From the NCBI GenBank assembly GCA_015065325.1, contig SVQO01000008.1, positions 7,840 to 71,839 of the forward strand: DNA of 64,000 bases, given 5' to 3'. Source of the DNA: Oscillospiraceae bacterium (lineage in GTDB: Bacteria > Bacillota > Clostridia > Oscillospirales > SIG627). The position numbers and the translations under genes were made by a program. The notes beneath the pieces are model-generated. The model worked only from the letters and a program-made list of their open reading frames with translations. It was not told the DNA's origin and ran no database searches. Numbering within the stretch: the stretch's first letter is position 1; each line of letters starts with the position of its first letter. This document shows positions 3,575 through 30,122 of this stretch, piece after piece.

Positions 3575-5065
3575 TTATCCTTGTGCCTTGCACTCTTTCA
3601 AAAGGCGGACCATTTCTACGGCGAAGTCGTCTCCGGTGGTTTCACAGAAGCGGCTGATGAATACCTCGTAAGCGCCGTGGGGGAAGGCGAGGGCGGAGGG
3701 CACGTAGCCGAAGCCGCCGTTGGAGTAGGAGCAGACGAAGGTCATTTTGAAGGGAGAGCCTTCGCGGACCTGAACGCCGTTGGTATCAAACATTTCGTAG
3801 GGAGCGGTGACAAAGCCGATATCGCCGAAGGAGATGGCGTAGAAGGGTACGTCCAGCGTTTCGCCGAGACTTGCGCGGCGAAGGATGCCTTCGATCTGGC
3901 GGGAGGAGGTAAAGCCGTTTTCTGCCAATGCCTTGGCGTAAGCCTCGGAGCCTTCCGCCTGCTTGTTGACGGTCTGCGCCTTTTCGATCGCCTCGGGGCT
4001 ATCCTGATAAACGGGCGCCTTGTACCAGTTGGAGGCGAAGCGCAGAGGACCGATTGCAACCTGCTCCTCCCCTGCAAGACAGCTTTCCGCGGTGGGGATC
4101 AAGCCTAGCTTGGTAGCATCGACAAAGGTGGAATATTTCCGTTCGCCGGGGATTGCGGAATTGAAGTTCAGATTTCCGGAGGCGCCGCTGTGATAAACGA
4201 AGTGGCAATCCCATTTCTTCTCGGCTTCTTCACGGAACACGTGAATAAAATCCGCGGAGTACTGGTTCTTATACATAGAGGTAGCGGAGCCGTAGTGAGT
4301 CTGATAGTTGACCATCAGAACGTCCTTTTTGTTTTTACGGTCGATGCGGATGGTACGCATCTGACAGTCTGCGTCGGATTCGTGTGCCACGGGGTTGCTG
4401 GATTGGGGGGCGTTGGTCTGGTAGGTTCCGTCTGCCAGCAGATAGCGGCGCACGAAGGTAATTCCCTCGGTATAGCCGGAGCCTACGTAAGCACCTTCGA
4501 CCGGATCCAGGTCGCGGAGTGCCGTGTTGATGGCGACAACCGCCTGGTTCAGCATCAGTACCTTCCATTTCAGAGCGGCGGTACTGTTAAAGGAGGAGTT
4601 GGGCGTGGAGTGAGAGTGGGTCACGTTCAGCACCACGCGGTCGGCGGGAACGTTGAATTCCTTTTGAATGCGGTCGGTAATGTCCTTGGAGAACTCCACG
4701 GTAATATTTTTAATATCCAGCGAGCAAAGCAAAGCCACGCTTCCCTCACCGTCGGAAATGGCGGTGCAGGTAAACATCAAGGGGTCGTGGGTGCTGTTGC
4801 CCGTTCCGTTGTAGATGGGCAGACCCGGCTCGGGGGTAATATCCGCTCTGCCGTAGCCTACGGAAAAGCCCTGGGGAAGCTCGTCGGGAATTTTGAAGTT
4901 TTCAACTTTCTGTGCAGGCTTTTTGCCGCTTTCCTGCTTAACGGAGGTTTTGGATTCTTCCTGCGCTGCGGTGGCTTGCGGTGCTGCCTGCTCCAAATCG
5001 GAAGCGCAGGAAGCAAAGGGGAGACAAAGCGCCAGCACGCAAAGAAGGGCGATCATTCTTTTCAT
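3575..5065 (-). CDS. Lipoprotein, neutral/alkaline non-lysosomal ceramidase-like hydrolase (paralog 0)
   Basis: The start was moved to MKRMIALLCVLALCLPFASC (lipobox, RBS AGGAGAA). Motifs are 'GFSVGYGRADITP', 'HDPLMFTCTAISDG', 'NVTHSHSTP', 'FVRRY', 'VNYQTHYGS', 'SGASGNLNFN', 'FGDIGFVTAPYEMFDTNG' and 'GAYEVF'. The C-terminus is ..CKAQG. Confidence 0.65.
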   Translation of the reverse strand: MKRMIALLCVLALCLPFASCASDLEQAAPQATAAQEESKTSVKQESGKKPAQKVENFKIPDELPQGFSVGYGRADITPEPGLPIYNGTGNSTHDPLMFTCTAISDGEGSVALLCSLDIKNITVEFSKDITDRIQKEFNVPADRVVLNVTHSHSTPNSSFNSTAALKWKVLMLNQAVVAINTALRDLDPVEGAYVGSGYTEGITFVRRYLLADGTYQTNAPQSSNPVAHESDADCQMRTIRIDRKNKKDVLMVNYQTHYGSATSMYKNQYSADFIHVFREEAEKKWDCHFVYHSGASGNLNFNSAIPGERKYSTFVDATKLGLIPTAESCLAGEEQVAIGPLRFASNWYKAPVYQDSPEAIEKAQTVNKQAEGSEAYAKALAENGFTSSRQIEGILRRASLGETLDVPFYAISFGDIGFVTAPYEMFDTNGVQVREGSPFKMTFVCSYSNGGFGYVPSALAFPHGAYEVFISRFCETTGDDFAVEMVRLLKECKAQG

Positions 5066-6703: not shown

Positions 6704-6779
6704 TGGTGATTCATCGGAGATTCGAACTCCGGACCCCTTGATTAAAAGTCAAGTGCTCTACCGGCTGAGCTAATGAATC
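6704..6779 (-). tRNA. tRNA-Lys (anticodon UUU)
   Basis: I folded the cloverleaf by hand: GATTCAT/ATGAATC acceptor stem, GCTC..GAGC D arm, CTTGA-CTTTTAA-TCAAG anticodon arm, CGGAG-TTCGAAT-CTCCG T arm, and an encoded CCA. A hairpin plus T-run follows at about 6678-6700. Confidence 0.9.
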
Positions 6780-6911
6780 AGGCGCTCTTTCAAGCGTGCC
6801 ATTTATAATATCACAATTTTTTTTCTTTGTCAAGAGATTTTTGCGAAAGTATGGAAAAGAGGATTTTTTTGTGATATACTGATGAAAACACGAGGGAAAG
6901 GGGGCTTTGGA

Positions 6912-7838
6912 ATGGAGATCCTGATAGGAAAGGATCTGGCGGGACTGACCGTCAAGAAGGTATTGTTCGACCGATTGAAGTTTTCCAGAGCCGCCATTAC
7001 GAGTCTGAAGACCCGCGAAATGGGGATCACGGTGAACGGAGAACATAAAACGGTGCGGTACGTGCTCTGTGAGGGGGACGTGCTGCGGCTTGCGGTGGAG
7101 GACACCGAGCCCTCTCCCCGCATTCGGGAAAGCCGCGGGGACATCGACGTGCTGTTTGAGGACGATGCGATCCTTGCGGTGAATAAGCCTGCGGGGATGG
7201 CGGTGCATCCCTCCAAAAAGCTGCAGGATGATACTCTGGCAGGCCGCATCCTTTACCACCGCTACCCCATGGTGTTCCGTGCGGAGGGCAGGCTGGATAA
7301 GAACACCAGCGGCGTGGTGATCTGTGCCAAAAACCAGGTGATCTCCGCCAAGTTTTTCCATATGATAAAGGATCACGGGATCCGCAAGGAATATCTGGTT
7401 CTGACCGAAAGTGAAAGGACTCCTCCCGAAAAGGGGGAGATCGACCTTTGCATCCGTCGGGACGAGATCAGCTATATCAAGCGGGTCTGCTTTGAAGCGG
7501 ACGGAACGGAAAAGGACAGCGAAACGGCTCTGACCACCTTCCGCCTTTTGGCAAGCCGTCCCCCCTACCACCTGTTCCTGGCAAGTCCCGTCACGGGAAG
7601 GACCCATCAGCTCCGCGCCCACTTTTCCGCCATCGGCTTTCCCTTGGCGGGGGATACCCTGTACGGGCGTGAATCCGAGATCATCCCCCGACAGGCGCTC
7701 CACGCCCTGCGTCTCAGCTTCGACCACCCTGCCACGGGTCAGCCTCTGACCGTGACCGCGCCCCTCCACGAGGATTTCAAAAAGGCATTGCTCTCCGCCT
7801 TCGGCGATTCCGTAACGGAAGCAATCTCCAAACTTTGA
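6912..7838 (+). CDS. RluA-family 23S rRNA pseudouridine synthase (RluD-like, S4 domain + catalytic domain)
   Basis: 'ILAVNKPAGMAVHPS', 'GRLDKNTSGVVICAKN' and 'HQLRAHFSAIGFPLAGDTLYG'. The ATG at 6912 follows a GGGGG RBS. The ATG at 6882 sits inside a TGtGATATACT extended -10. Confidence 0.85.
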   Translation: MEILIGKDLAGLTVKKVLFDRLKFSRAAITSLKTREMGITVNGEHKTVRYVLCEGDVLRLAVEDTEPSPRIRESRGDIDVLFEDDAILAVNKPAGMAVHPSKKLQDDTLAGRILYHRYPMVFRAEGRLDKNTSGVVICAKNQVISAKFFHMIKDHGIRKEYLVLTESERTPPEKGEIDLCIRRDEISYIKRVCFEADGTEKDSETALTTFRLLASRPPYHLFLASPVTGRTHQLRAHFSAIGFPLAGDTLYGRESEIIPRQALHALRLSFDHPATGQPLTVTAPLHEDFKKALLSAFGDSVTEAISKL

Positions 7839-7847
7839 GGTATCACT

Positions 7848-9167
7848 ATGAAAAAAATACTCTGTTTGTTCCTGACCTTCGTTCTGCTTCTGCCGTTGAT
7901 CTCTTGCGGAAATGATCTTCCATCTTCCGAAAGCAAAACCGAAGAAGCTCTTCCCAAAACACAAGAAAAAGAAACCGAAGAAGCTCTTCCCAAAACACAA
8001 GAAAAAGAAATCGAAGAAACAAAACCCGAATATCCCACCGTGCATCAGCCTCTTACGTGGGAAAAGATCGACGCCATCCCCGTAGCAAAGGAGGGGATGA
8101 CAAGCGAGCAGCTTCGGCAGATCTGCCTGGATCTGTTCCGTTTGAGTCTGACCTTTCAGTGGACTCCCGCGCAGGATTACAGCTACAAAATTTCCGAGAA
8201 AAACGTAGTGCTGAAAACGGGCAATGTCTATGCAGGCGTTCCCTACGTTGCAGAAAATGCAGGCGGCAGCTTTTACGCCTTTCTGCGCTGTTACGACCCC
8301 GAAACGGGGATCCTGGATCTTGGCAGTGCCAAAAGCGCGGGCGTCATCCCCACCCTGGGAACCCACTGCTCCTCCGGTGCCTTCTGGGGCTGGGCAAGGG
8401 TAGTCAATTCCATTCCCTCCAGATACAGCACCGTTATGTATCACCACGAGCAAGGCTTTTTACGCGTGGGTCCCTATCAGTATTTTACGCCCGGTGACCG
8501 CTGGGACAGAGAAGACAATTCCACCAAAAACTGCTGTACGGCAAACGGGCAGGACGTGATGTTCCGCTCCTACGCCGCCATTGAGCCTGCCGACGGACTG
8601 CTTTTGGTAATGCCCTTCGGTATGCACGTGAGAATGGCGGTGAGCGTGACCGTGGTAAAAAATGAAGACGGCACCATCAACGGTGACAAGAGCTACGTGA
8701 CCTACCTGGATCAGGGCTCCTCCTGGGACGAAAAGGATCTGGGCGAGGAAGGCTCCGTTTCCTTCCAGGGCGGTGTGGACGAAAAGGAAAGCTTCTCAAA
8801 GCTCTACAAAACCGGCTACGTCCCCTTTACCTTTGGGGAGTTTTTGGGAACCGATCCCATTGAAAAGGCAGAGGCCACCCTCAAGCCGGAGGGCGACGTG
8901 ACCTTGACACAGCTGAAGGACGCCAAGCTTACCTCCAATTACTTTTTGGCAGATATCAACCTGACCGCCTACGATGCCGAGGGCAAGGTCCGCTTTACCA
9001 CCGCCTGCAATCCGGGCAACACCTTCTGTGTCAAGACCATGGAGATGGATCGCCTTTTGATGTCAGCCAAAACCCAAAAAGAAGTAAAGGCGGCGGAACG
9101 CGTCGTCATCAAAGCTTATCTTGCAAACGGAGAAACCGTAACCGTATTTGATGGAAAGGTGCTGTAA
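7848..9167 (+). CDS. Lipoprotein, hypothetical (possible Cys-peptidase-like 'GTHCSSGAFWGW' motif)
   Basis: MKKILCLFLTFVLLLPLISC lipobox, a charged repeat linker, then a globular domain. I recognise no family with confidence. Confidence 0.55.
   Translation: MKKILCLFLTFVLLLPLISCGNDLPSSESKTEEALPKTQEKETEEALPKTQEKEIEETKPEYPTVHQPLTWEKIDAIPVAKEGMTSEQLRQICLDLFRLSLTFQWTPAQDYSYKISEKNVVLKTGNVYAGVPYVAENAGGSFYAFLRCYDPETGILDLGSAKSAGVIPTLGTHCSSGAFWGWARVVNSIPSRYSTVMYHHEQGFLRVGPYQYFTPGDRWDREDNSTKNCCTANGQDVMFRSYAAIEPADGLLLVMPFGMHVRMAVSVTVVKNEDGTINGDKSYVTYLDQGSSWDEKDLGEEGSVSFQGGVDEKESFSKLYKTGYVPFTFGEFLGTDPIEKAEATLKPEGDVTLTQLKDAKLTSNYFLADINLTAYDAEGKVRFTTACNPGNTFCVKTMEMDRLLMSAKTQKEVKAAERVVIKAYLANGETVTVFDGKVL
7938..8009 (+). 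repeat. Perfect 36-bp tandem duplication inside the lipoprotein linker (TEEALPKTQEKE x2)
   Basis: 7938-7973 is identical to 7974-8009, read directly from the sequence. Confidence 0.9.
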
Positions 9168-9169
9168 AT

Positions 9170-9625
9170 ATGAAAACCATTCAAAGCTTTACCGTGGACC
9201 ACACCAAGCTCCGCCCGGGACTGTATATTTCCCGCAAGGACGGGGACGTGACCACCTTTGATCTGCGCACCCGTACTCCCAATGCAGGGGATTATATGTC
9301 AAATCTCGTGATGCACTCCGTGGAACATTTGTTTGCCACCGCGGTGCGCAACGGTCCTTTGGGGGAAGGAGTTCTGTATTTCGGTCCCATGGGCTGTCAG
9401 ACCGGCTTTTACCTGCTGACACGCGGACTTGCGCCCGAAGCGGTTCGGGATGAGATCCTTCGCGTGCTGGAGGAGATCTGCGCCTGGACGGAGGAAATGC
9501 CCGGGGGTCGGGAGATCGAGTGCGGCAATTACCGCAATCTGGATCTTGCGGCGGCAAAAGAGGAATGTGCCCGCTATTTGGCGATTTTGAAGGAAAGAGA
9601 GATCGATTTTGAATATGAAGTATAA
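9170..9625 (+). CDS. luxS: S-ribosylhomocysteine lyase
   Basis: 'FTVDHTKL', metal motif 'HSVEHL' and 'GPMGCQTGFY'. Length 151 aa. Confidence 0.9.
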   Translation: MKTIQSFTVDHTKLRPGLYISRKDGDVTTFDLRTRTPNAGDYMSNLVMHSVEHLFATAVRNGPLGEGVLYFGPMGCQTGFYLLTRGLAPEAVRDEILRVLEEICAWTEEMPGGREIECGNYRNLDLAAAKEECARYLAILKEREIDFEYEV

Positions 9626-10310
9626 AAGAGTTGGCGTGATCTGCGCCATGGCAAGTGAAGCGGATCGGATCCTTGCCGCCATGACGGAAAAGGAGACGAG
9701 ATCCGTGGGCTCTATGACCTTTTCTACGGGAAGGATCGGGGAACGGGAGGTGGTTTTATGCGTATGCGGCATCGGCAAGGTCTTTGCCGCTATGTGTGCC
9801 CAGACGATGATCCTGACCTTTTCCCCCGATTGCATCATCAATTCCGGTGTGGCGGGCTCCTTGTCCGAGGAGCTTGAGATTTTGGATATTGCCGTTGCCG
9901 AGGAGCTGGTTCAGCACGATATGGATACTTCGCCTCTGGGTGATCCTGTGGGAATGATCTCAGGGATCAACCGCGTCCGGCTTCCTGCCGATTCGGAATT
10001 GGCAGAGTGCATTTGCACCGCCGCCAAAGCCCTTGGCTTTACGACGAAAAAAGGCAGGATCGCTTCGGGAGACCAGTTTATTGCCACCGCGGAGCAGAAG
10101 GAGAGGATCAAGACGCTGTTTGATCCCATTGCCTGCGAAATGGAGGGCGCCGCCATTGCACAGGTTGCTTTCGTTGCGGGCGTGCCCTTTGCCTGCATCC
10201 GTGCCATTTCCGACTCGTATTCCGGAAAAAATGAAATGGACTATGCAAAATTTGCCGCGAAAGCGGCAAGCCGCGGAGCGGAGCTTCTCATACGCGCCTT
10301 GACGGAATAA
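9609..10310 (+). CDS. mtnN: 5'-methylthioadenosine/S-adenosylhomocysteine nucleosidase
   Basis: 'VGVICAMASEA', 'CGIGKVFAAMCAQTMI', 'INSGVAGS' and 'EMEGAAIAQVAF..PFACIRAISD'. It overlaps the luxS end. Confidence 0.85.
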   Translation: MNMKYKRVGVICAMASEADRILAAMTEKETRSVGSMTFSTGRIGEREVVLCVCGIGKVFAAMCAQTMILTFSPDCIINSGVAGSLSEELEILDIAVAEELVQHDMDTSPLGDPVGMISGINRVRLPADSELAECICTAAKALGFTTKKGRIASGDQFIATAEQKERIKTLFDPIACEMEGAAIAQVAFVAGVPFACIRAISDSYSGKNEMDYAKFAAKAASRGAELLIRALTE

Positions 10311-10392
10311 ACTTTTTTGTTCAAAAAATATTTCTTGTTTTTTCATGGATTCTATGATAGAATAAGAAAAATATCTCATAAGGAGAAACGTT

Positions 10393-11910
10393 ATGAAAAG
10401 ATTGATCGCATTGATCCTTGCCGCGATGATGCTGTTTTCTTTGGCAGCGTGTGGCAGCTCGTCACTTGAAAGCGAACCCGTCGCTCCCAAGCAGACCGAA
10501 GAAAAGAAGACCGTACAGAGCACTCCTCCTGCCGCGACTCAGGACGAGATCGTTTTGGAAACCGGTCCCATTACGTTGCCCGAGGGCTTTTCCGTGGGCT
10601 ATGCCCGCGTAGATATTACCCCTACTGCCTGGCCGACCCTGTTCTACAACGGTGAATACGCCAAAAATGCGCACGACCCCTTGCAGTTTACGGTCGTTGC
10701 TCTTTCCGACGGTGCAACCGTTGCACTCATCTGCTCGATCGATATGCGCGGTATGAACACCGAGCTGGTCGAGAAAACCAAGGATCTTTTGGTGAAGGGC
10801 GTTGAGAAAAACTCGGACATCAAGATCGCTCCCGAGAATATCTTTATCAACAACTCCCACTCTCACTCCGCGGTTGACTGCAATATGGAGGATCCCACCG
10901 TCGTACGCTGGAAATCTCAGGTTTACTACAAGAAGCTTCCTATCGTAGGCGAGGCCGCAGTCCGCGACCTGACCTCCGCCGAGCCTTATGCGGGCAAGAG
11001 CCATACCGAGGGTCTGACCTTCGTGCGCCGCTACTTCCGCGAGGACGGGACTTTTACCAGCATCCATTACAGAGACACCTCCAGCTCTCCCATCGTTCGT
11101 CACGAGTCTGATCCCGATACGGAAATGCGTACCCTTCGCTTTGACCGTGCCGGAGACGCCAAGGACGTTCTGATGGTCAACTATCAGACCCACTACGGCT
11201 CTGCGGAAAGCATTTGGCCCGACCAGATCTCTGCGGACTTCGTCCACCAGTTCCGTGAAAGAGCAGAGAAGGATCTGAACTGCCACTTCTCCTATATTGC
11301 GGGAGCAGGCGGAAACCTGGTATTCAACACCCGTATCGCAGGGGAGAGAAAGTATCCCACCATCGTGGAGGGCTCTGTTCATATGCTGGACGTTGCCAAG
11401 GAGGCGATTGCTGTCGAGGAAAAGGTTGCGACCGGCGCCATCCGTTCTTCCTACGTGATGTACAAGGGTACCCACAATCACGACTACGATCCGGACATCG
11501 TTAACAAGGCAAAAAGCATTGCCAATGCAGGCGCGCGCACGAAGGAACAGCAGGAGCTGATCGATCTGTACGGCTTCCATTCCCGCTATCAGGCAAGCGG
11601 AATCATTGCAGGCATGAGTGCCGATTACACCGAATTCCCCTTGGCTGCCATCTCCTGCGGCGATATTGTGTTCTGTGCTTTCCCCTATGAAATGTGGGAT
11701 ACCAACGGCAAGGAATGCCGCGATGCTTCCCCCTTTAAAGTGACCTTTATTTCTTCCCTGACCAACGGCGGAGTAGGCTATATTCCTGCCGCACATGCCT
11801 TCCCCAACGGTGGCTACGAGGTTTATTCCTGCCGCTTTAAGCCCGGCTGCGGTGAGGAATTCGTGGCAGAGATGCTGCGCTTGCTGGCAGACTGCAAGGC
11901 GCAGGGCTAA
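10393..11910 (+). CDS. Lipoprotein, ceramidase-like hydrolase (tandem paralog 1)
   Basis: Lipobox LFSLAAC. Motifs are 'GFSVGYARVDITP', 'HDPLQFTVVALSDG', 'NNSHSHSA', 'LTFVRRYFREDG', 'VNYQTHYGS', 'GAGGNLVFN', 'CGDIVFCAFPYEMWDTNG' and 'GGYEVYSCRF'. It ends LLADCKAQG. Confidence 0.65.
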   Translation: MKRLIALILAAMMLFSLAACGSSSLESEPVAPKQTEEKKTVQSTPPAATQDEIVLETGPITLPEGFSVGYARVDITPTAWPTLFYNGEYAKNAHDPLQFTVVALSDGATVALICSIDMRGMNTELVEKTKDLLVKGVEKNSDIKIAPENIFINNSHSHSAVDCNMEDPTVVRWKSQVYYKKLPIVGEAAVRDLTSAEPYAGKSHTEGLTFVRRYFREDGTFTSIHYRDTSSSPIVRHESDPDTEMRTLRFDRAGDAKDVLMVNYQTHYGSAESIWPDQISADFVHQFRERAEKDLNCHFSYIAGAGGNLVFNTRIAGERKYPTIVEGSVHMLDVAKEAIAVEEKVATGAIRSSYVMYKGTHNHDYDPDIVNKAKSIANAGARTKEQQELIDLYGFHSRYQASGIIAGMSADYTEFPLAAISCGDIVFCAFPYEMWDTNGKECRDASPFKVTFISSLTNGGVGYIPAAHAFPNGGYEVYSCRFKPGCGEEFVAEMLRLLADCKAQG

Positions 11911-11926
11911 ATTTAAAAAAGCAAAA

Positions 11927-11954
11927 AATGCTATGGTTTCCATAGCATTTTTTC
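11927..11954 (+). terminator. Intrinsic terminator after paralog 1
   Basis: AATGCTATGG-TTT-CCATAGCATT followed by TTTTT. A near-identical copy lies after paralog 2. Confidence 0.75.
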
Positions 11955-11983
11955 TTGTATTTCGGAAAAAAGCGTGTTATACT
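11955..11983 (+). promoter_or_regulatory. Sigma-A-like promoter for paralog 2
   Basis: TTGTAT-N17-TATACT with TG at -15/-14 (TGtTATACT). Confidence 0.5.
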
Positions 11984-12013
11984 GATGATACCGAAAAGGA
12001 AAGGAAATTTGCT

Positions 12014-13498
12014 GTGAAACGGATTCTTGCACTACTGCTTTTGCTGACAAGCCTTTTTTCTCTGTTTTCCTGTACCGCCGCGCTTCCGGAAGAAAAGATC
12101 CCTGTGCAGACGGCGGAGACTACGGAAAAACAGACTTCCGAGAATAAAGCGGAAAAGGGACCCATTACCTTGCCCGAGGGCTTTTCCGTGGGCTATGCCC
12201 GTGAAGATATTACCCCCATTACCTGGCCCGTATTTTTAACCGAAAACGGCGGTTACGCCGAAAAAGCCCACGATCCCTTGCAACTTACCTGCGTTGCGCT
12301 TTCCGACGGGAAAAACGTGGCGCTGATCTTGACCGTGGATATTATCAATATGAATCTGGAGCTGACGGAAATGTCCAAGAAGCTTCTGACCAAGGATCTG
12401 GATATCGAGATCCCGTCGGAGAATATTTTCCTCAACTGCTCCCATACCCATACCTCTGCGGATTACAAGGCAAAATCCGAGCCCAGCATCGCTGCCTGGA
12501 AGTCCCAGGTTTACTATAAGAAGCTTCCCTTGGTGTCGGAGGCGGCGCTCCGCGACCTAACCCCTGCCAAGGCGTTTACGGGAACAAGCCATACCGAGGG
12601 CTTGACCTTTGTGCGCCGCTACTTCCGCGAGGACGGAAGTTTTGAAGGTATTTTGCACAAGAATTCTTCCAATTCCCCCATTGTCCGTCATGAGTCTGAG
12701 CCGGATACGGAGCTCCGTACCATCCGCTTTGAACGTGAAGGGGAGAAAAAGGACGTCTTGATGGTCAACTATCAGACCCATTACGGCTCTGCAAGTGCGC
12801 TGTATCCCCAACAGATCTCTGCCGACTTCGTTCATCCCTTTCGCCAAGCGGCGGAGAAACAGCTGAATTGTCACTTTTCTTACTGCAACGGTGCGGGAGG
12901 AAATTTGGCGTTCAACAGCAGAATTCCCGGGGAGAGAAAGTACCCCACCTTTGAGGATGCCATTCCCCATTTGATGGACGTGACAAAAAGCGCCCTTGCC
13001 GCCGAGGAAGCGGCTGAGGTAGGTGAGCTTCGAGTTGCCCACAGTGATTACCGGGGGATCTGCAACAACACCTACGACGAGGAGACGGTGGCTTTGGCAA
13101 AAGCGATCATCAACGCTCCCGCAGAGAGTGAAGAACGTGCCGCTCTGGTTGCAAGCTCTGATTTTTACGATGCTTTCCACGCAAGCTGTGTGTATATTGC
13201 CGCCACCACGGGAAGCATCAACGTTCCTTTGACTGCCATTACCTGCGGAGATCTTGCCTTTTGTGCCTTCCCTTACGAAATGTTCGATACCAACGGCAAG
13301 GAGTGCCGCGAGTCTTCTCCCTTTAAGATGACCTTTATTTGCTCACTTACGGGAGATGCGTTGCGCTACGTCGCTTCTGCCGAGTCTTATAAAAACGGTG
13401 GCTACGAGGTGTATTCCGGCCGTTTCCGTCCGGGCAGCGGCGAGGAATTCGTGGCAGAAATGCTGCGCTTGCTGGCAGATTGCAAGGCACAGGGATAA
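12014..13498 (+). CDS. Lipoprotein, ceramidase-like hydrolase (tandem paralog 2)
   Basis: A GTG start follows AAGGAAAGGAAA. The signal is VKRILALLLLLTSLFSLFSC. It carries the same motif set as paralog 1 (NCSHTHTSAD etc.) and ends LLADCKAQG. The longer ORF-track start at 11795 would read through the terminator and promoter. Confidence 0.65.
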   Translation: MKRILALLLLLTSLFSLFSCTAALPEEKIPVQTAETTEKQTSENKAEKGPITLPEGFSVGYAREDITPITWPVFLTENGGYAEKAHDPLQLTCVALSDGKNVALILTVDIINMNLELTEMSKKLLTKDLDIEIPSENIFLNCSHTHTSADYKAKSEPSIAAWKSQVYYKKLPLVSEAALRDLTPAKAFTGTSHTEGLTFVRRYFREDGSFEGILHKNSSNSPIVRHESEPDTELRTIRFEREGEKKDVLMVNYQTHYGSASALYPQQISADFVHPFRQAAEKQLNCHFSYCNGAGGNLAFNSRIPGERKYPTFEDAIPHLMDVTKSALAAEEAAEVGELRVAHSDYRGICNNTYDEETVALAKAIINAPAESEERAALVASSDFYDAFHASCVYIAATTGSINVPLTAITCGDLAFCAFPYEMFDTNGKECRESSPFKMTFICSLTGDALRYVASAESYKNGGYEVYSGRFRPGSGEEFVAEMLRLLADCKAQG

Positions 13499-13515
13499 AT
13501 TTAAAAAAGCAAAAA

Positions 13516-13544
13516 AATGCTATGGATTTTCCATAGCATTTTTC
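13516..13544 (+). terminator. Intrinsic terminator after paralog 2
   Basis: AATGCTATGG-ATTTT-CCATAGCATT followed by TTTT. Confidence 0.75.
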
Positions 13545-13573
13545 TTGTGTTTTGGGAAAAACCGTGTTATACT
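13545..13573 (+). promoter_or_regulatory. Sigma-A-like promoter for paralog 3
   Basis: TTGTGT-N17-TATACT (TGtTATACT), homologous to 11955-11983. Confidence 0.5.
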
Positions 13574-13603
13574 AACGGTACTGAAAACGAAAGGAAAACT
13601 GCT

Positions 13604-15070
13604 ATGAAACGATTTTTTGCGACGGTGCTTGCGCTGGTAAGTCTTCTGTCCTTGGGCTCCTGCTCCTCCTCTTTGGAGACCGGAGAAGTGAAAACGGCGG
13701 AGGAAGTGAAGGAAAGCGTGGAAAAGACCCCTGAAAAAGAAGCGGAAACGGGTCCTTTCGTTCCGCCAGAGGGCTTTTCCGTGGGCTACGCCAGACTGGA
13801 TATGACCCCCTCCAATTTTCCCATTCTTTCCTATGACGACGGCTATGCCAACGGCGCGCACGATCCGATTCAGATGACCTGCGTTGCCGTTTCAGACGGT
13901 GAGACCACCGCCCTTCTGATCACCCTTGATCTGAGAAATATGGGCGTGACCCTGGCGACCCGTTGCCGCGAGATCATTTCCAAGAACGTGGGGATTCCCG
14001 TTGAGAATATCTATATGAATTCCTCCCACACCCACTCCTCCGTGGATTGCAACTTCGACGAGGATTCCGTTACCATCTGGAAGACCAAGTTTTACAAGCT
14101 TCTGCCTCAGATGGCAGAGCAGGCGATTCGCGATCTGACTCCTGCCGACGCTTACGTGGGCGCCTCTCACACCGAGGGCCTCACCTTCGTGCGCCGCTAT
14201 ATCGGTGAGGACGGTTCCTTCAACGGAATCGGCGACGCCGCCACTTCCGTCAACCTCCGTCATGAATCCGAAGCGGATTCCGAAATGCGCGTGATTCGCT
14301 TTGATCGCGCAGGGGACGCCAAGGACGTTGTGATGGTCAACTATCAGACCCACTACGGCGGTGCTACCTCCCTGTGGCCTGAAAAGCTTTCCGCGGACTT
14401 CGTGCATTTTCTCCGTCAGAGCGCGGAAAAGGAGCTGAACTGCCACTTCTCCTACTTCAACGGCGGCTCGGGGAACCTTGCCTTCAACACCAAACTGGAG
14501 GGAGAATTGAAATATCCCACCTTTGTAGATGCCATCCCCCACATGATGGACGTGGTGAAGGATGCGATTAAAGGGGAGGAAAAGGTGCAAACGGGGAAGG
14601 TGCGTGTGGAAAACAACGACTTCGTCACCGAGTCCCGTAAATTTGACGAGGATACCGTTGCCAAGGCAAAGCAGGTGGTGGACGCGGGCAAGGATACCCA
14701 AGTCCAAAAGGATCTGATCCTTCAGTACGGCTTCCGCTCCCGCTATGAAGCCGCTGCCATTTGCAGAACCGCCGCCATGGCGGATCAGACTGCCGTGAAT
14801 TTCGGTGCGGTCAGCTTCGGTGATATCGCTCTGGCCTTCGCTCCTTACGAAATGTTCGACGCCAACGCCAAGGAAATTCGCGAGGCTTCTCCCTTTCAGA
14901 TGACCTTCGTTTGCGGCTACACCAACGGCGATTACAGCTACGTTCCCGCCGCCTACGCTTGGGAAAACGGCGGCTACGAGGTCTTCTCCTGCCGATTCCC
15001 CGAGGGCTGTGGCGAGGTCTTTGCCAACGAAATACTGCGTCTTCTGAACGCGTGCAAGGCACAAGGATAA
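13604..15070 (+). CDS. Lipoprotein, ceramidase-like hydrolase (tandem paralog 3)
   Basis: ATG at 13604 after AAAGGAAAA. Lipobox LLSLGSC. Motifs are 'GFSVGYARLDMTP', 'NSSHTHSSVD', 'FVRRYIGEDG', 'VNYQTHYGG', 'GGSGNLAFN', 'FGDIALAFAPYEMFDAN' and 'GGYEVFSCRF'. It ends LLNACKAQG. Confidence 0.65.
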   Translation: MKRFFATVLALVSLLSLGSCSSSLETGEVKTAEEVKESVEKTPEKEAETGPFVPPEGFSVGYARLDMTPSNFPILSYDDGYANGAHDPIQMTCVAVSDGETTALLITLDLRNMGVTLATRCREIISKNVGIPVENIYMNSSHTHSSVDCNFDEDSVTIWKTKFYKLLPQMAEQAIRDLTPADAYVGASHTEGLTFVRRYIGEDGSFNGIGDAATSVNLRHESEADSEMRVIRFDRAGDAKDVVMVNYQTHYGGATSLWPEKLSADFVHFLRQSAEKELNCHFSYFNGGSGNLAFNTKLEGELKYPTFVDAIPHMMDVVKDAIKGEEKVQTGKVRVENNDFVTESRKFDEDTVAKAKQVVDAGKDTQVQKDLILQYGFRSRYEAAAICRTAAMADQTAVNFGAVSFGDIALAFAPYEMFDANAKEIREASPFQMTFVCGYTNGDYSYVPAAYAWENGGYEVFSCRFPEGCGEVFANEILRLLNACKAQG

Positions 15071-15077
15071 AAATAAA

Positions 15078-15120
15078 ATGCTATACAAACACAAATTTTG
15101 TGCTTGTATAGCATTTTTTA
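15078..15120. terminator. Bidirectional terminator between paralog 3 and the patatin gene
   Basis: AATGCTATACAAACAC-AAATTTT-GTGCTTGTATAGCATT flanked by an A-run and a T-run. Confidence 0.7.
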
Positions 15121-15963
15121 TCTTAAAAATTCTTTGAGCCTTTCCGTTTGTTCCTTTCCCGCATCGTACCCGAGACGGTGTGCCAGACGAAGCTTTTCGG
15201 GATCCTTTTCCGTGCGGCTGACGGGTAAGGGCTCCGAGGGCATAATGACGAAGGCTTTTCCCTCTGCCTGCTTGCGGAAGATCTCCTCCCGCTGAGCGTT
15301 GTAACGGGTGTGGCGAGACTTCATACATTGGTACAGGGCGCTTTTTTTGCCGTAGCGCAAGCCCATCAGAGCAAGGGCGGAGGAGCTCTCCTTCCGATAA
15401 GAGGAGGGCTGAGTCAGGATTACCACGTTTTTCTCAAAACCTTGGTTCTCCATAAAGGAAAGGGGGATGGAATCCGCTACGCCGCCGTCCAAATAGGATT
15501 CCCCGTCGATCATCACTTTGCGGGATACCAGGGGCATAGAGGCGGAAGCGCGGAACAGGGACATCGTCCTTTCCCGATCCCCGTTGCAGAGAAAACTGCG
15601 GGCAGTGCCCGTTTCCACGTGCGTACAGGTGACGTAAAAGGGTGTGCCGTCCCGATCCCAGGCATCCCAGTCGAAGGGGTCCAGCTCCTCGGGCAGGGTC
15701 TTATAGCAGAATTCGGCACCGTACAGATCTCCGGTGGTAACCAGGGAAAACAGACTGCAATAGCGCTTGTCACGGCAAAAACGGGTGTTATAGCGGAGGG
15801 CTCTTCCTTTTTGAGCGGAACGAAAATTGCATCCGAAGGCGGCGCCTGCACTGACGCCGACGATTCCGTCAAAACGAATTCCTTCCTCCAAAAAGGCGTC
15901 CAATACTCCTGCGGTAAAGAGTCCCCGCATAGCGCCGCCTTCCAGTACCAGTCCCGTTTTCAT
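15118..15963 (-). CDS. Patatin-like phospholipase family protein
   Basis: Oxyanion 'LEGGAMRGLFTAGVL' and nucleophile elbow 'GVSAGA'. AAAGGAG lies 8 nt before the ATG at 15963. Confidence 0.8.
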   Translation of the reverse strand: MKTGLVLEGGAMRGLFTAGVLDAFLEEGIRFDGIVGVSAGAAFGCNFRSAQKGRALRYNTRFCRDKRYCSLFSLVTTGDLYGAEFCYKTLPEELDPFDWDAWDRDGTPFYVTCTHVETGTARSFLCNGDRERTMSLFRASASMPLVSRKVMIDGESYLDGGVADSIPLSFMENQGFEKNVVILTQPSSYRKESSSALALMGLRYGKKSALYQCMKSRHTRYNAQREEIFRKQAEGKAFVIMPSEPLPVSRTEKDPEKLRLAHRLGYDAGKEQTERLKEFLR

Positions 15964-18732: not shown

Positions 18733-20307
18733 TTAAAGCGAAATTTGTTGAGGAATTCTGTTTTCGTAAAAGAACAGGTTTCGAAATCCGATTTCTTTCA
18801 GAGTCAGCAAAGCTTTGTCGTAATTCTTTCCCGCATCCTGCGGGGCGTGGGCATCGGTACCCACGGTGACAAGGTAGCCGCCCATTTCGTGATAACGCTT
18901 CAGGATCTCTCTGTCGGGCAGGAAGTCACCCAAAATACGGTAGGAGGAAACGTTGACCTCCAGTGCAATGCCTTTTTTGATGATCTTCTGCAAGATCAGA
19001 TCGATCTTTTCATCGTATTTGGCTCGGTCGATGCCAATGCCGAATTTTCCGTTGATGTAACGCAGTGGGCAGGTCAGGTGGCAGAGCACGTCAAATTCCA
19101 CGCAGTCGATCATCGTCAGCATATCGGTAAAATACCGATCCAGATACTCCTCGATCACCTCTCGGGAAAGGGAGGGAAAGTCCAGCGCGGAATAAGCGCG
19201 AGTCAGATCCTTGTACTGAACAAGATGCACCGAGCCCAGGATCACGTCGTAATCGGTCAGACGTCTTACCTGCTCGTAAATTTCGGGGTGCCAGAATCCC
19301 TCGCTGATCTCTACACCCGTCAGCACGCGGAACCTGTCACCGAGCTTTTCGTTTAGTGCCCGTGCCTCCTCCGCCGCTTTTCCGATGGGGGTGACCACGT
19401 CGTAGCGCAGGTAGGAATGGGTATCGAAGTGATCGGTGACCGCAAAGCCGTCCATTCCCTTTTCCATTTGCGCGTCTGCCATATCCCGAATTTTGCACAC
19501 CGAGTCGTGGGAGTGCTCGGAATGGGTGTGCATATCGATTCGCAGACCCTTGTTTTTCGGCGGCTTGATCTGCCCGTTGGTTTCAATAATATCGGCTCCC
19601 AAGGCTTCGGCATCTGCCAGATCCCGATAGCTCGACAGGATCCATACCCCGAGAGAGGCGTAGGGCTTGATCATTTCCGCCAGTCGGGGATTGGCAAATT
19701 CTACCTTGACCCAAGTGGTTTTGGGATTTTGGTGGGGAAGCCAGACGGTGAGACGCTCCTTGGGTAAAAGCGTTCCCAGCTCCTCCAAAGCTTCGGGAGT
19801 GACGGCTCCGTCATAATGCAAGTGCATTTCGGGAAAGGCGCTTACCGCTTCCGTAATGGCTTCAAGATTGGAGCAGGTGAGGCTTGCTACCGTTTGATAG
19901 GGAGCAAGGAGCTTGAAAAAGGCTTCCTTTTGTTCCGGGGTGTAGCGCTGATACTTGTTGTCGATCTTCAGGCGGATCCCTTTTTTCTCTGCAAGGGCAA
20001 GCACGTCGTCAAACAAGGCGATCTTCGTACCGCGGAACTTCTCGGAGAACCATACGCCGAAATCGTATTCCAGCGCCTTTTCGTAGGGAATGTCGGTAAT
20101 ACGGATCTCCTCGGCAATAGGGGAACCGTCGGGGTTTCGACCGGTTCGGTTTAAGGTGGCGTCGTGGATCAGGACAAAACGTAGATCCTGCGTGGGGGCA
20201 ACGTCCAGCTCAATAATATCGTACCCCTGCTCCATTGCCGCCAGAAATGCGGGCATGGTGTTTTCGGGATGCTCGGTGCTGACGCCTTTATGTGCTTGGA
20301 ACTGCAT
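18733..20307 (-). CDS. Fusion protein: N-terminal glycerophosphodiester phosphodiesterase (GDPD) + C-terminal PHP phosphoesterase domain
   Basis: GDPD: 'AHKGVSTEHPENTMPAFLAAMEQGYDIIELDV...LIHDATLNRT'. PHP: 'IDMHTHSEHSHDS...AVTDH...GSVH...VGTDAH'. The ATG at 20307 follows AAAGGAG. Confidence 0.7.
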   Translation of the reverse strand: MQFQAHKGVSTEHPENTMPAFLAAMEQGYDIIELDVAPTQDLRFVLIHDATLNRTGRNPDGSPIAEEIRITDIPYEKALEYDFGVWFSEKFRGTKIALFDDVLALAEKKGIRLKIDNKYQRYTPEQKEAFFKLLAPYQTVASLTCSNLEAITEAVSAFPEMHLHYDGAVTPEALEELGTLLPKERLTVWLPHQNPKTTWVKVEFANPRLAEMIKPYASLGVWILSSYRDLADAEALGADIIETNGQIKPPKNKGLRIDMHTHSEHSHDSVCKIRDMADAQMEKGMDGFAVTDHFDTHSYLRYDVVTPIGKAAEEARALNEKLGDRFRVLTGVEISEGFWHPEIYEQVRRLTDYDVILGSVHLVQYKDLTRAYSALDFPSLSREVIEEYLDRYFTDMLTMIDCVEFDVLCHLTCPLRYINGKFGIGIDRAKYDEKIDLILQKIIKKGIALEVNVSSYRILGDFLPDREILKRYHEMGGYLVTVGTDAHAPQDAGKNYDKALLTLKEIGFRNLFFYENRIPQQISL

Positions 20308-26985: not shown

Positions 26986-27777
26986 TCAGGAGAAAAGCGA
27001 TTGCACTCGGTTGATCTCTTCCTCGGTGGGGATTTGACGGGGCAGGGTGTTTTCCATTCCCAGTGCCTTGTACTTGGAGCCTGCCAGATCGTGATAGGGG
27101 AGGACCTTTACCTTTTCGATACAAGTAAGAGGACGGAGAAATTCTGCCAGTTTTTCCATCTGGTCGTCGTTGTGCCCGGGTACGTAGGGAATGCGGATCT
27201 CTACCTTTGCCCCCACGGAATTTAAGTAAAGAAGGTTTTCCAGAATTTGCTCGTTGCTTTGCCCCGTGCAGCGGATATGCACCTTTTCGTCAAAGGCTTT
27301 CAGATCGTATAGGAACAGGTCGGTATAGGGCAAGACCTTCGTCAAGGTTTCCCGCGGCACGAAGCCGCAGGTATCTACGGCGGTATGGATCCCCTCCTCC
27401 TTCAGCCGCTTTAAAAGCTCGGCGGCAAAGGGTGCCTGAGAAAGACATTCTCCCCCCGAAAGGGTCACACCGCCTCCGTTTTCGTAAAAGGGGCGATCCT
27501 CCAGCAAAAGGGGCATCAGCTCCTCGACGGTCATTTCCTTTCCGTAGAGGATGCGGGCTTCCCCGAGACAGTCGCGGGGGTGAAAGTCCTTGCTTTGACA
27601 GGCGCCGCAGCCGATACATTTGTTTTCGAAAAAGGCGGTCTGCTCCTCAAAGGAGATGCCCTCGGGATTGTGACACCAGATACATTTTAAGGGGCACCCC
27701 TTGAAAAAGACCGTGGTGCGGATGCCGGGGCCGTCGTGGACGGCAAAGCGCTTCAGGTCGGTAATTTTTGCTTTCAT
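26986..27777 (-). CDS. Glycyl-radical enzyme activating enzyme (radical SAM)
   Basis: 'FAVHDGPGIRTTVFFKGCPLKCIWCHNPE' (CxxxCxxC) plus a ferredoxin-like 'CIGCGACQ'. The ATG at 27777 overlaps the GRE stop (ATGA). Confidence 0.85.
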   Translation of the reverse strand: MKAKITDLKRFAVHDGPGIRTTVFFKGCPLKCIWCHNPEGISFEEQTAFFENKCIGCGACQSKDFHPRDCLGEARILYGKEMTVEELMPLLLEDRPFYENGGGVTLSGGECLSQAPFAAELLKRLKEEGIHTAVDTCGFVPRETLTKVLPYTDLFLYDLKAFDEKVHIRCTGQSNEQILENLLYLNSVGAKVEIRIPYVPGHNDDQMEKLAEFLRPLTCIEKVKVLPYHDLAGSKYKALGMENTLPRQIPTEEEINRVQSLFS

Positions 27778-30008
27778 CGGGCGATATTCTCCGCTCTCAG
27801 AATGTAGGCGTCCTGCTCCGCCTTTGACATATTGTTCCAAAGGGTGTTCCAGCCGCAGACGCGCACCTGCAGATTGCGGTACTTCTCCGGATGCTCCTGT
27901 GCGTCCCGCAGGGTTTCGGAACGGAAAACGTTGAACTGGATGGATTGTCCGCCGCCCTTTAAATAGGTGGTCAAAAGATTGTTCCAGACCGCAAAGCCTT
28001 CCTCCCCCGAAAGGGTACTGGGATGGAGCATTATGTCTAGGCAGAAGGACTCGTGGTAATTGGAGGGACAAAGCTTCAGAGCCGAGGAGATCAGCGCAGT
28101 GACGCCTTGTTTATCCATTCCCGCCACGGGGGAAGCGTTTTTGGAAAGCTCCTCTCCGCTTTTTCTTCCGTCGGGGAGGGCACCGGTCAAAGCGCCGTGT
28201 CGGATGAAGCCGCGTGCCGAATGGAGGATGGCTTTATACACACCGCCCTTTTCGTTGGGCACGTTGTTTACCTTTTGGGCGAAAAAGTCTGCCATTGCCG
28301 CCGCATAGGTGTCGGCAAGAGGGTCGCCGTTGCCGTATTTGTGGGGAGATTTTTTGATCTTTGCCCGCAAAAGCTCGCTTCCCTCCCAGTTGTTTTTCAA
28401 CACTTGGGCAAGCTCGGTCAGGGTCAGTTCCTTTTGATCGTAAACGAATTCCTTTACCGCAAGGATGCTGTCCACTGCACTGGCAAAGGAGCAGTTCAGC
28501 ATTCCGTTATTGCAGAATTTTACACCGCCGCCGTAGCCGTCCTTACCTTTTTTCAAGGCGCTTTCCACGGTTGCGGAGTACATGGTGGAGGGATTGACGA
28601 AGGCAAGGTATTTTTCCGCGTCGTTGGTGATACGGATCCCGATCTCCACAAGGTTTTCCCACTGCTTGAGAAAGGCAAAATAAAAATCCTCGAAGGTGAC
28701 AAGGCTTTCGAGCTCGCCCGTTTGCACGCCGATCTGCTTGTTTAACGCAGTGTCAAAGCCGTTGGAGAATACGTATTCCACGGCTTTTGCGGCGTTGATA
28801 TAGCCGGAGGTGGAGCATGCCTCGTTGCCGCGGACGCCCGTTTCGTAGCAACCGCGGATATCGAAATTCAGCGCTTCCTCGTAGGTGGCGCCGTATCCCA
28901 TCACCGCCTTGATCATTCCCGGCTCACAGCAGAATACAAGGCTTGCGTTTTTGCGCCGCACCATATCGAAGGCTTTTCTTAAAATGGATTCGGGCGTGTT
29001 TTCGTTGATCTTTAATTGGATCTTGGGGTTGTAGATCTCAAGGCCGTCGTAAACCTCCAGGATCAGGTGAGAAAGCGCGTTATATTTGCTGCTGCCGTCG
29101 GAATTGGTTCCGCCCAAATAAAAGGGCTGACCCCAATAGTTGCCGATGGCGGACCACTGCATCAAAAAGTAGGAGAGAAAATGTCCCAGCTCCTCCTCGG
29201 TGTATCTGCCGCTTTCCAGATCCGTCTTATAAAAGGGATAAAGCGTGCCGTCCAGACCATTGCCGAGAGAACGGACCTGATAACGGTCGATGCACTCCGA
29301 GATGATAAAGTAGAGATAGATCAGCTGGAGTGCCTCGTAGAAGGTGGTGGGAGGACCGTGGCGCAGATGCTCCAGACAGACGGTGATCTCCTTTGCTTTT
29401 TCAAAGCTTTGCTTCTCGGCAAGGGCGATCATTCGGTCGAGCAGATGCAGGATCGCCGTATATTGAAGCTCGATCCCCTCGAAAAAGGCGTCTGCTTCTT
29501 CGGTTAGGGTTCCTGCCGTCCGATGCATTTTGCGATATTTGCGGGCGCGCTCAATGATCCCCGTAAAGCCAAGCTTCATCAGGGAGTCCCAATCGGGAAC
29601 CACATGGTCGTAATCCACCCAGTACATCATAGCGCCGCAGGCGTTGACGTCCTCGGAAAGCCGTACCAGCTCGGGGTCGCGAAGCGCAAGGGATTCCTCC
29701 GCCCATTTGCTGAAGGTGACGCATTTTGCAAGACGGTCCAGGGAATACAGACCCACGAAATAATCGTGCTCGTTGAGATAGATCCGCTGGTGCTGCAAAA
29801 GGTACTCGATTGCCCGCGCCTTTGCCACGGGATGGGGAAGGTTATCCAGGGGAAGGGCTTTCAGTCCCTCCAGAAGTTCCTCGTCGTCAAGTCCGCTTTC
29901 CTCCAAATAGCCGATGCCGTGGTACGCCATTCGCTTGAAGGGATTGAATTCTTTTTCGGGATCGTGGTATTTCCGTTCCACGAAATAACGGTCCGAAGAA
30001 TGGATCAT
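27774..30008 (-). CDS. Glycyl-radical enzyme, PFL2/dehydratase-lyase clade, substrate unknown (744 aa)
   Basis: Gly-radical motif 'RVCGWN' (Gly codon 27852-27854). Cys loop 'RGCYETG' (Cys codon 28848-28850), 332 residues upstream. The ATG at 30008 follows AAAGGAG. The longer ORF-track N-terminus overlaps the divergent AraC gene. Confidence 0.8.
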   Translation of the reverse strand: MIHSSDRYFVERKYHDPEKEFNPFKRMAYHGIGYLEESGLDDEELLEGLKALPLDNLPHPVAKARAIEYLLQHQRIYLNEHDYFVGLYSLDRLAKCVTFSKWAEESLALRDPELVRLSEDVNACGAMMYWVDYDHVVPDWDSLMKLGFTGIIERARKYRKMHRTAGTLTEEADAFFEGIELQYTAILHLLDRMIALAEKQSFEKAKEITVCLEHLRHGPPTTFYEALQLIYLYFIISECIDRYQVRSLGNGLDGTLYPFYKTDLESGRYTEEELGHFLSYFLMQWSAIGNYWGQPFYLGGTNSDGSSKYNALSHLILEVYDGLEIYNPKIQLKINENTPESILRKAFDMVRRKNASLVFCCEPGMIKAVMGYGATYEEALNFDIRGCYETGVRGNEACSTSGYINAAKAVEYVFSNGFDTALNKQIGVQTGELESLVTFEDFYFAFLKQWENLVEIGIRITNDAEKYLAFVNPSTMYSATVESALKKGKDGYGGGVKFCNNGMLNCSFASAVDSILAVKEFVYDQKELTLTELAQVLKNNWEGSELLRAKIKKSPHKYGNGDPLADTYAAAMADFFAQKVNNVPNEKGGVYKAILHSARGFIRHGALTGALPDGRKSGEELSKNASPVAGMDKQGVTALISSALKLCPSNYHESFCLDIMLHPSTLSGEEGFAVWNNLLTTYLKGGGQSIQFNVFRSETLRDAQEHPEKYRNLQVRVCGWNTLWNNMSKAEQDAYILRAENIAR

Positions 30009-30122
30009 CGCATTCACTCCTTTTCCCCGATTATAGGACGAAAAATAATAAATTTGAATAGATAAAAGAAAAATACTTGACTGTTTCGAAACAAAACCGT
30101 AAAATATCCTTGAGGTGATGAA

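Follow-up and report, generated by a model that had tools for sequence, protein, structure and literature searches.

Tandem lipoproteins with a predicted short neutral-ceramidase-like fold in an Oscillospiraceae bacterium

Neutral ceramidases, represented structurally by the human enzyme ASAH2 (PDB 4WGK) and by Pseudomonas aeruginosa PaCD (PDB 2ZWS/2ZXC), are extracytoplasmic proteins of ~650–780 amino acids (aa) described as virulence or signalling enzymes present in a single copy. In the human enzyme the zinc is reportedly ligated by His194, Glu540 and Tyr579, with His303 as the fourth ligand, an assignment said to go back to Airola and colleagues in 2015. In the Lpl (DUF576) cluster of Staphylococcus aureus, lipoprotein paralogs are arranged head to tail, and strains differ in how many copies they carry. 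The stretch of DNA considered here, termed the window, comprises 64,000 nucleotides (nt) of an Oscillospiraceae bacterium (GenBank assembly GCA_015065325.1, contig SVQO01000008.1, positions 7,840–71,839). It encodes a tandem array of three lipoproteins (P1, P2 and P3), a fourth lipoprotein copy (P4) and two giant proteins (G1 and G2), which share a domain predicted to be neutral-ceramidase-like in fold and active site. The likeness to Lpl lies in the head-to-tail arrays of varying copy number; Lpl is an unrelated family without an enzyme fold, whereas copies of the window family all keep the catalytic site. The six genes are as follows.

10393–11910, + strand: P1, lipoprotein, 505 aa, ATG start; lipobox LAAC with Cys20; C-terminus LLADCKAQG
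12014–13498, + strand: P2, lipoprotein paralog, 494 aa, GTG start; lipobox LFSC; C-terminus LLADCKAQG
13604–15070, + strand: P3, lipoprotein paralog, 488 aa, ATG start; lipobox LGSC; C-terminus LLNACKAQG
3575–5065, − strand: P4, lipoprotein paralog, 496 aa; signal peptide MKRMIALLCVLALCLPFASC, MKRMIALL...FASC
49232–54130, − strand: G1, secreted protein with signal peptide, 1632 aa; predicted C-terminal ceramidase-fold domain
54340–59193, − strand: G2, paralog of G1, ~1617 aa; family domain at the C-terminus

The best explanation of the locus, and a probable one, is that P1–P4 act as metal-dependent amidohydrolases with a shortened, single-domain neutral ceramidase fold, as do the domains at the C-termini of G1 and G2. 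P1 has a predicted disordered linker (residues 20–50) and a catalytic domain spanning residues ~55–505, and it gave a confident AlphaFold2 (AF2) model (mean predicted local distance difference test score, pLDDT, 86.4; predicted TM-score 0.84). Comparison of this model with the PDB using Foldseek identified human 4wgk (E 4e-20) and Pseudomonas 2zxc/2zws (E 2e-17), with TMq of ~0.6 (TM-score 0.46–0.50 when normalized to the target) and a sequence identity of 12–14%; the next match had an E-value of 2e-3, such that only neutral ceramidases were found below 1e-3, and no peptidase or esterase was matched. A profile built from 42 family members also matched 4wgk in the PDB (E 6.8e-10), in two stretches. 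Alignment of hidden Markov models to 4WGK, with human numbering derived from a construct that begins at residue 99 (PMC6952831), equates H156 with His194, H158 with His196, R212 with Arg257, E433 with Glu540, Y463 with Tyr579 and Y475 with Tyr591; the roles of His196, Arg257, Tyr579 and Tyr591 in human neutral ceramidase have been described (PMC6952831). These six residues, together with H267, are kept in 146–150 of the 150 non-redundant family copies compared (taken from the window and 38 metagenome-assembled genomes, MAGs) and are invariant in alignment A1. H267 lies in the motif NYQTHYG, is kept in 149 of the 150 copies and occurs in the correct order for His303. Since the profile of the middle third (residues 236–335) matched no ceramidase in the PDB, H267 is put forward from its order and conservation as a candidate equivalent of His303. 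Further invariant charged residues are R213, H237, E238, D242, R246, R249, R252, D282, R288 and R443, and hypervariable segments are found at residues 121–130, 161–175, 221–230 and 321–415.

Several features besides the unmatched middle third weigh against a straightforward equation with neutral ceramidases. The Pfam model Ceramidase_alk (PF04734, gathering threshold 32.1 bits) did not match P2, P3, G1 or G2 and scored P1 (12.0 bits, E 0.08) and P4 (18.9 bits, E 6.7e-4, the best among the window copies) below threshold. The putative counterpart of the GDVSPN motif, which carries Ser354, reads G-A-x-G-N-L-N without a conserved Ser. The C-terminal Ig-like domain of the neutral ceramidases is absent, because only ~30 residues follow the YE motif (Y475-E476), a segment in which Pfam has no match. 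However, the distant family members P0231 (50 bits) and P0177 (54 bits; four-digit P-numbers denote more distant family proteins) exceed the PF04734 threshold, and many distant members carry precomputed PF04734 hits. The window proteins are therefore a short divergent sister group that grades into PF04734, not strict members of it. The label 'ceramidase-like', given to these genes in an earlier reading of the sequence alone, is thus borne out by the predicted fold and the six catalytic residues, but not by the Pfam threshold or the C-terminal domain, and the putative Ser motif differs.

The window family and the neutral ceramidases have in common the predicted catalytic-domain fold, the HxH/R/E/Y/Y residues and an extracytoplasmic location. 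They differ in size (a domain of ~450 aa versus the ~650–780-aa proteins), in the predicted lipid anchor in a Gram-positive organism and in copy number, with six copies in 64 kb and ~30 per genome versus one. Also close to the window family are proteins of ~440 aa with PF04734 hits from Oscillospiraceae, Lawsonibacter and Faecousia MAGs (for example P0211 and P0356), which belong to the same family (E 1e-55 to 1e-60) and have the same catalytic residues and catalytic-domain length. Many distant members are of this kind; they differ in being cytoplasmic, without a signal peptide, mostly single-copy, in a housekeeping-type context and more often hit by PF04734. All of these PF04734-hit proteins are named 'hypothetical protein' and none is characterized; one such locus (L018; L-numbers denote loci from related MAGs or metagenome contigs) had housekeeping neighbours and was uninformative.

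That P1–P4 are extracytoplasmic lipoproteins, as the sequence-only reading had it, agrees with an export signal and lipobox in each. The signal peptides of P1–P3 are basic and then hydrophobic, each closing in a lipobox-like motif. Judged by sequence pattern, the motifs follow the lipobox [LVI][ASTVI][GAS]C, with slightly atypical boxes in P2 and P4, and 115 of the 150 family copies match a lipobox pattern. A scan of the four window lipoproteins against NCBIfam returned no family model, only weak matches of lipoprotein signal models to residues 1–40.

Pairwise identities within the array are 59% (P1–P2), 54% (P1–P3) and 52% (P2–P3). P4 is 43% identical to P1–P3, and the giants are 30–37% identical to the lipoprotein copies. 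As tblastn E-values among the copies range from 1e-69 to 0, their paralogy is not due to chance. All family pairs in the window have ratios of nonsynonymous to synonymous substitution (dN/dS) of 0.16–0.49, at synonymous divergences (dS) of 1.1–4.4, which argues that the copies are functional proteins. The three lipobox paralogs in tandem, the fourth copy with a P3-like 3′ end and the two giant fusions had all been recognized earlier, and all were recovered here; the 3′ end of P4, TGCAAGGCACAAGGATAA, is that of P3, with the last 18 nt identical.

G1 and G2 are 57% identical in their catalytic domains and 51% (tblastn) or 53% (alignment A2) identical in their N-terminal regions. These regions of ~1140 aa are predicted by AF2 to be all-beta with GGxF/Y-type repeats (pLDDT 87.7). 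For the N-terminal 1143 aa of G1, Pfam returned nothing and Foldseek generic Ig matches only, none at E < 1e-3; a likeness to photoactive yellow protein (phmmer against the PDB, E ~1e-3) was judged spurious. Giants of ~1600 aa are restricted to this clade (about 25 proteins) and are mostly paired on one contig. Long antisense open reading frames (ORFs; 478–1034 codons) lie opposite the family genes at 10462–11943 (−), 13892–15328 (−), 54439–57543 (+) and 51752–53929 (+), and also opposite orthologs in L001 and L002. Although striking at 50% GC, they are probably an artefact of codon usage.

The second feature of the array is the near-identity of its internal spacers, for which the following elements are relevant (RBS, ribosome-binding site).

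10311–10392, + strand: region upstream of P1; RBS AAGGAGA; not homologous to the internal spacers in an alignment of upstream regions
11840–12013, + strand: homogenized block 1, comprising spacer 1 and the preceding ~70 coding nt of P1 (scored part 11840–11971)
11911–12013, + strand: spacer 1; hairpin 11923–11953, TTGTAT 11955–11960, TGT-TATACT 11975–11983, RBS 11996–12007
13428–13603, + strand: homogenized block 2, comprising spacer 2 and the preceding ~70 coding nt of P2 (scored part 13428–13561)
13499–13603, + strand: spacer 2; hairpin 13513–13543, TTGTGT 13545–13550, TATACT 13568–13573, RBS ~13589–13597
15075–15117, both strands: bidirectional terminator hairpin between P3 and a patatin gene; −22.8 kcal/mol, z −8.4

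The two spacers are identical at 91 of 102 positions (89%). In both, a 14-bp hairpin (−16.1 and −16.8 kcal/mol, z −6.8 and −5.3) precedes a T-run, after which come TTGT(A/G)T, 17 nt, TGnTATACT (an extended −10 element, 5/6) and an AGGAAA-type RBS. The terminators are well supported. The promoters show a resemblance to the consensus only: the putative −35 element matches it at 3/6 positions and was not listed by an automatic promoter scan, a weak point of the proposed terminator-promoter-RBS module, of which the near-identity and the hairpins stand. Rfam identified no RNA family in the spacers, its sole match in the window being a tRNA at 6707–6779. In the large arrays of relatives the genes are 13–30 nt apart in operon style, and the terminator-promoter spacers are a peculiarity of the window locus.

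The sequence-only reading took the spacers as a sign that the whole transcription unit had been duplicated in tandem. Recent duplication of this kind, with young copies diverging rapidly under positive selection, would account for the 89% spacer identity and for the regular period of the units (1588/1572–1594 nt). It is nevertheless highly improbable and was rejected. The array pairs are saturated at synonymous sites (dS 1.26–1.65) with dN/dS of ~0.25. P1 has orthologs of 80–84% identity in three other species-level MAGs (L021, L002 and L001), and P2 has separate orthologs of 81–82% identity in L002 and L021; no close ortholog of P3 was present in the loci examined (best 56%). Because dS exceeds 1 and P1 and P2 each have their own orthologs elsewhere, the array is old, and it is under purifying selection. 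The number of gene copies at the patatin-bounded locus is 1 in L001, 2 in L002, 3 in L021 and 3 in the window, a further point against recent duplication of the whole unit.

The 3′ ends of the genes show a different pattern. Positions 11840–11971 and 13428–13561 are 88% identical while the remainder of both genes is 60% identical, and over the last 60 coding nt P1 and P2 agree at 54 positions, compared with 37 between P1 and its ortholog and 41 between P2 and its ortholog. The orthologous spacers in L021 and L002 differ in sequence or length. Since the paralog 3′ ends are closer to each other than to their own orthologs despite dS > 1, a block of ~170 nt (3′ coding end, terminator, putative promoter and RBS) bears the signature of copying between P1 and P2 by gene conversion in this lineage, a case of concerted evolution on an old array and not the remnant of a whole-unit duplication. 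The blocks were extended to the start codons of P2 and P3 because the spacers match over their entire length. The arms of the hairpins (AAAATGCTATGG...CCATAGCATTTTT) recur in the bidirectional terminator that closes the array beside the patatin gene in L001 and L021, indicating that the module ancestrally stood at the array's 3′ end and was copied inward; the arms of the hairpin at 15075–15117 are likewise related to the internal spacer hairpins and to these terminal terminators. Shorter patches of high identity within the genes (10555–10635, 10991–11056 and 11674–11752) suggest further mosaic tracts, though they coincide with conserved motifs.

The family is large and the amplification in the window is modest in comparison with that of its relatives. 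An exhaustive search across 1.84 billion cluster representatives matched 5,234 at E ≤ 1e-3 and 540 at E ≤ 1e-30. Every source name returned for the homologs was 'hypothetical protein', and ten distant clusters that were looked up carried no names, in keeping with the earlier description of the Firmicute members as uncharacterized. The close relatives come from uncultured Eubacteriales/Oscillospirales MAGs from the gut of Tibetan sheep, yak and goat; carrier MAGs include Faecousia, Lawsonibacter, Acutalibacteraceae and Oscillospiraceae, and a few distant members occur in Hadza human gut MAGs. One 26-kb contig (L003 and L006) is nearly all a single run of ~17 tandem copies, and other arrays contain at least 13 (L019), at least 12 (L020) and 8 (L010) copies. 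Counted as distinct copies within the contigs fetched, and thus as lower bounds, single MAGs carry at least 33 (JAZPZL), 29 (JAZOSM) and 16 (JAZLXV). The lineage-specific amplification that had been proposed is real but wider than envisaged, being clade-wide among Oscillospirales MAGs, with arrays of 12–17 genes and at least 29–33 copies per genome; a conserved single-copy housekeeping context was not found among these relatives.

P1 itself is present in JGI metagenome 3300018494, from a goat-faeces enrichment culture, where the contig that holds it (Ga0187911_10012338, L017) breaks off in spacer 1, a few bases beyond the stop codon. Short-read assemblies thus seem to break at paralog arrays, and copy numbers in MAGs are therefore likely to be lower bounds. 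Some array members have no signal peptide and start at an FSVGYGR motif (L021 13126–14481, L003 7141–8421 and L012 8571–9848); either surface copies and seemingly cytoplasmic ones occur side by side in the arrays, or the start codons were called wrongly.

Three neighbouring genes encode possible partners of the family.

15118–15963, − strand: patatin-like acyl hydrolase without signal peptide; Pfam Patatin 9e-22, DUF6363 1e-22
18733–20307, − strand: GDPD-PHP fusion, cytoplasmic; Pfam GDPD 1.4e-21, PHP 2.4e-21
48414–49220, − strand: PHP-domain protein directly downstream of G1 on the same strand; PHP E 2.6e-4, below cutoff

The convergent patatin gene and the GDPD-PHP gene further on, both named in the sequence-only reading, were confirmed by Pfam. 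The patatin gene converges on the array in four of four genomes, with orthologs of 71–74% identity in L001 and L002 and another in L021. An ortholog of the GDPD-PHP protein (79% identity) lies ~7 kb from a four-copy array in L005, and the protein is possibly a functional partner of the array. In addition, a UgpQ-like GDPD protein of 270 aa, also cytoplasmic, is embedded within arrays of 8–17 genes (L020 10280–11092, L003 14386–15192 and L010 14371–15228), at a position conserved in three MAGs and with 75–87% identity. In animals, N-acylphosphatidylethanolamine (NAPE) is catabolized via glycerophospho-N-acylethanolamine (GP-NAE) to N-acylethanolamine (NAE) and beyond by ABHD4, GDE1 and FAAH/NAAA. 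The combination of an acyl-ester hydrolase, a GDPD phosphodiesterase and an N-acyl amidase in that pathway resembles, by analogy, the association of patatin, GDPD and ceramidase-like proteins seen here. The window amidase differs in that it is not homologous to FAAH or NAAA and would act at the surface, with patatin and GDPD in the cytoplasm.

The small proteins would be exported, lipid-modified at the lipobox Cys and tethered outside the membrane through a flexible linker of ~35 residues. By analogy with neutral ceramidases, a Zn2+ ion with two His, one Glu and one Tyr as its ligands could activate a water molecule, and a His/Arg/Tyr set could stabilize the tetrahedral intermediate as an N-acyl amide bond is split. 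The substrates may be amide-linked lipids or glycolipids (ceramide-like sphingolipids or N-acyl lipids) of plant, host or other bacterial membranes, and the many paralogs may differ in the head groups or acyl chains that they serve. Lipid fragments, once imported, would be processed further by the patatin and GDPD/PHP enzymes of the cytoplasm. Extracellular N-deacylation of amide-linked lipids or glycolipids is tentatively favoured as the single most likely function, with deacylation of non-lipid glycoconjugates, also a possibility, close behind. The conserved patatin and GDPD neighbours hint at lipid substrates, and the lipid-type and glycan-type contexts would both be compatible with glycolipids. 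Several observations count against this proposal. The patatin and GDPD enzymes lack signal peptides and would therefore act on imported fragments and not alongside a surface amidase, which makes their link to it indirect. The cytoplasmic location of many distant relatives is unexpected for a membrane-lipid hydrolase, and a membrane-lipid substrate should for that reason not be assumed family-wide. The window and related loci are rich in carbohydrate-active enzymes (CAZymes; GH78, GH95, GH2, GH43, GH77, GH28 and GH89/NAGLU), and in some members from other loci the domain is joined to F5/8 type C (discoidin), MucBP or dockerin-like modules, which fit a glycan or glycoconjugate substrate too.

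In its strictest form, the lipid proposal would make these proteins bona fide secreted ceramidases that convert ceramide and other sphingolipids (plant glucosylceramide and glycosyl inositol phosphorylceramide, GIPC, or Bacteroidota dihydroceramides) to a sphingoid base and a fatty acid. Neutral ceramidases are the sole structural relatives, every mappable catalytic residue is conserved, distant members pass the PF04734 threshold or have precomputed hits to it, and the patatin and GDPD neighbours are conserved; yet the identity of only 12–14%, the sub-threshold Pfam scores of the window copies, the absent Ig-like domain, the unalignable middle third, the cytoplasmic relatives and a complement of ~30 paralogs per genome, which exceeds any known ceramidase repertoire, leave this doubtful. 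A similar standing is given to surface amidases or deacylases acting on non-lipids, such as the N-acetyl or N-acyl groups of plant or host glycans, glycoproteins or peptidoglycan, as accessories to polysaccharide degradation. Beyond the CAZymes and module fusions, such a role would fit a CE4 polysaccharide deacetylase gene within the G2-G1-PHP gene string, a RicinB lectin gene near one array and the many invariant charged residues (R213 to R443) without a stated ceramidase counterpart. On the other hand, proximity to CAZymes is to be expected of any gene in a saccharolytic genome, patatin and GDPD are more consistently linked to the arrays than any CAZyme, no glycan deacetylase with this fold is known, and discoidin domains also bind membranes; this role is possible but uncertain. 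The arrays of surface lipoproteins with mosaic conversion tracts, the adhesion-type fusions and the hypervariable segments could also be read as those of variable surface antigens or adhesins that diversify the surface against phage or host immunity, with the enzyme fold as a mere scaffold. A scaffold does not need the catalytic residues that 146–150 of 150 copies keep, selection is purifying throughout and cytoplasmic members exist. Because the active site is conserved, a purely non-catalytic role in surface variation is very unlikely.

Extending the N-deacylation proposal, the arrays might constitute a Gram-positive 'lipid utilization' system, the lipid counterpart of polysaccharide utilization loci, although we consider this rather unlikely. 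Dozens of tethered amidases, diversified in specificity, would release fatty acids from amide-linked gut lipids, among them host glycosphingolipids, plant GIPC and NAPE, and the sphingolipids and lipoamino acids of Bacteroidota. The giants and the versions with dockerin-like, MucBP or discoidin modules would attach the enzyme to plant surfaces or foreign cells, and cytoplasmic GDPD, PHP and patatin proteins would finish the head groups. If this is correct, an uncultured Oscillospirales clade of the ruminant gut would occupy a new nutritional niche as scavengers of membrane lipids.

Fold and chemistry are known already, and both had been guessed correctly from the sequence. What is new is the short single-domain architecture, lipid-anchored or giant-fused, which is without prior annotation or study; the ~30 paralogs per genome in a ruminant-gut Oscillospirales clade with conserved GDPD and patatin association; and the conversion-homogenized regulatory module. 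Overall, no new principle is involved. A literature search found no paper on the short family or on ceramidase-like lipoproteins in Oscillospirales, and we know of no Firmicute enzymes currently assigned to the degradation of gut sphingolipids or related bioactive lipids. The predicted ceramidase machinery appears here in a stripped-down, lipid-anchored form that is amplified in Clostridia abundant in the gut of sheep, yak and goat but uncultured. Amide-linked lipids as substrates would make these bacteria major gut degraders of sphingolipids and related bioactive lipids; with glycoconjugates as substrates, the family would be a new class of accessory deacylase. Either way, ~5,000 public cluster representatives are without a name, a Pfam or NCBIfam model of their own or a studied member, and the locus makes a well-defined, testable starting point for work on this enzyme family, whose several thousand clusters lack annotation. 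It also provides a clear natural case of gene conversion homogenizing a terminator/promoter/RBS module between anciently diverged paralogs.

Some unusual family members were observed among the related loci. Two P4-like proteins (L009 3800–5491 and L007 3507–5240) have a signal peptide without a lipobox, followed by two repeats of ~45 residues, each of which combines a C..C pair with a dockerin/EF-hand-like Ca-loop, GDLDQNGxxDxxDAxYLL (Pfam Dockerin_1, E 0.056 only); P0121 (565 aa) is probably a protein of the same type. A 943-aa member fused to two MucBP domains (L080 5650–8481) adjoins genes for a GH25-SH3 lysozyme and a D-Ala-D-Ala carboxypeptidase. Although labelled Muribaculaceae, this contig looks Firmicute in gene content and may be mis-binned.

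Other genes of the window include a glycyl-radical enzyme (27774–30731, −; pyruvate formate-lyase-like with a Gly_radical domain) that has an N-terminal extension of ~370 aa and sits among genes for a zinc-dependent alcohol dehydrogenase, a GFO/IDH/MocA-family protein and AraC and SorC-type regulators. Together with GH78 and GH95 in the window, this cluster could belong to a deoxy-sugar or diol pathway. In L005 a glycyl-radical enzyme gene (9145–11385) lies ~1.7 kb upstream of the GDPD-PHP ortholog (13057–14628). The tRNA gene at 6707–6779 (−; Rfam 73.7 bits) indicates that a 580-codon ORF at 6711–8453 (−) is spurious. The real genes of this region are a pseudouridine synthase gene (6882–7838, +) and a gene for an unannotated 439-aa protein (7848–9167, +), which contains a 36-nt tandem duplication at 7929–8000.

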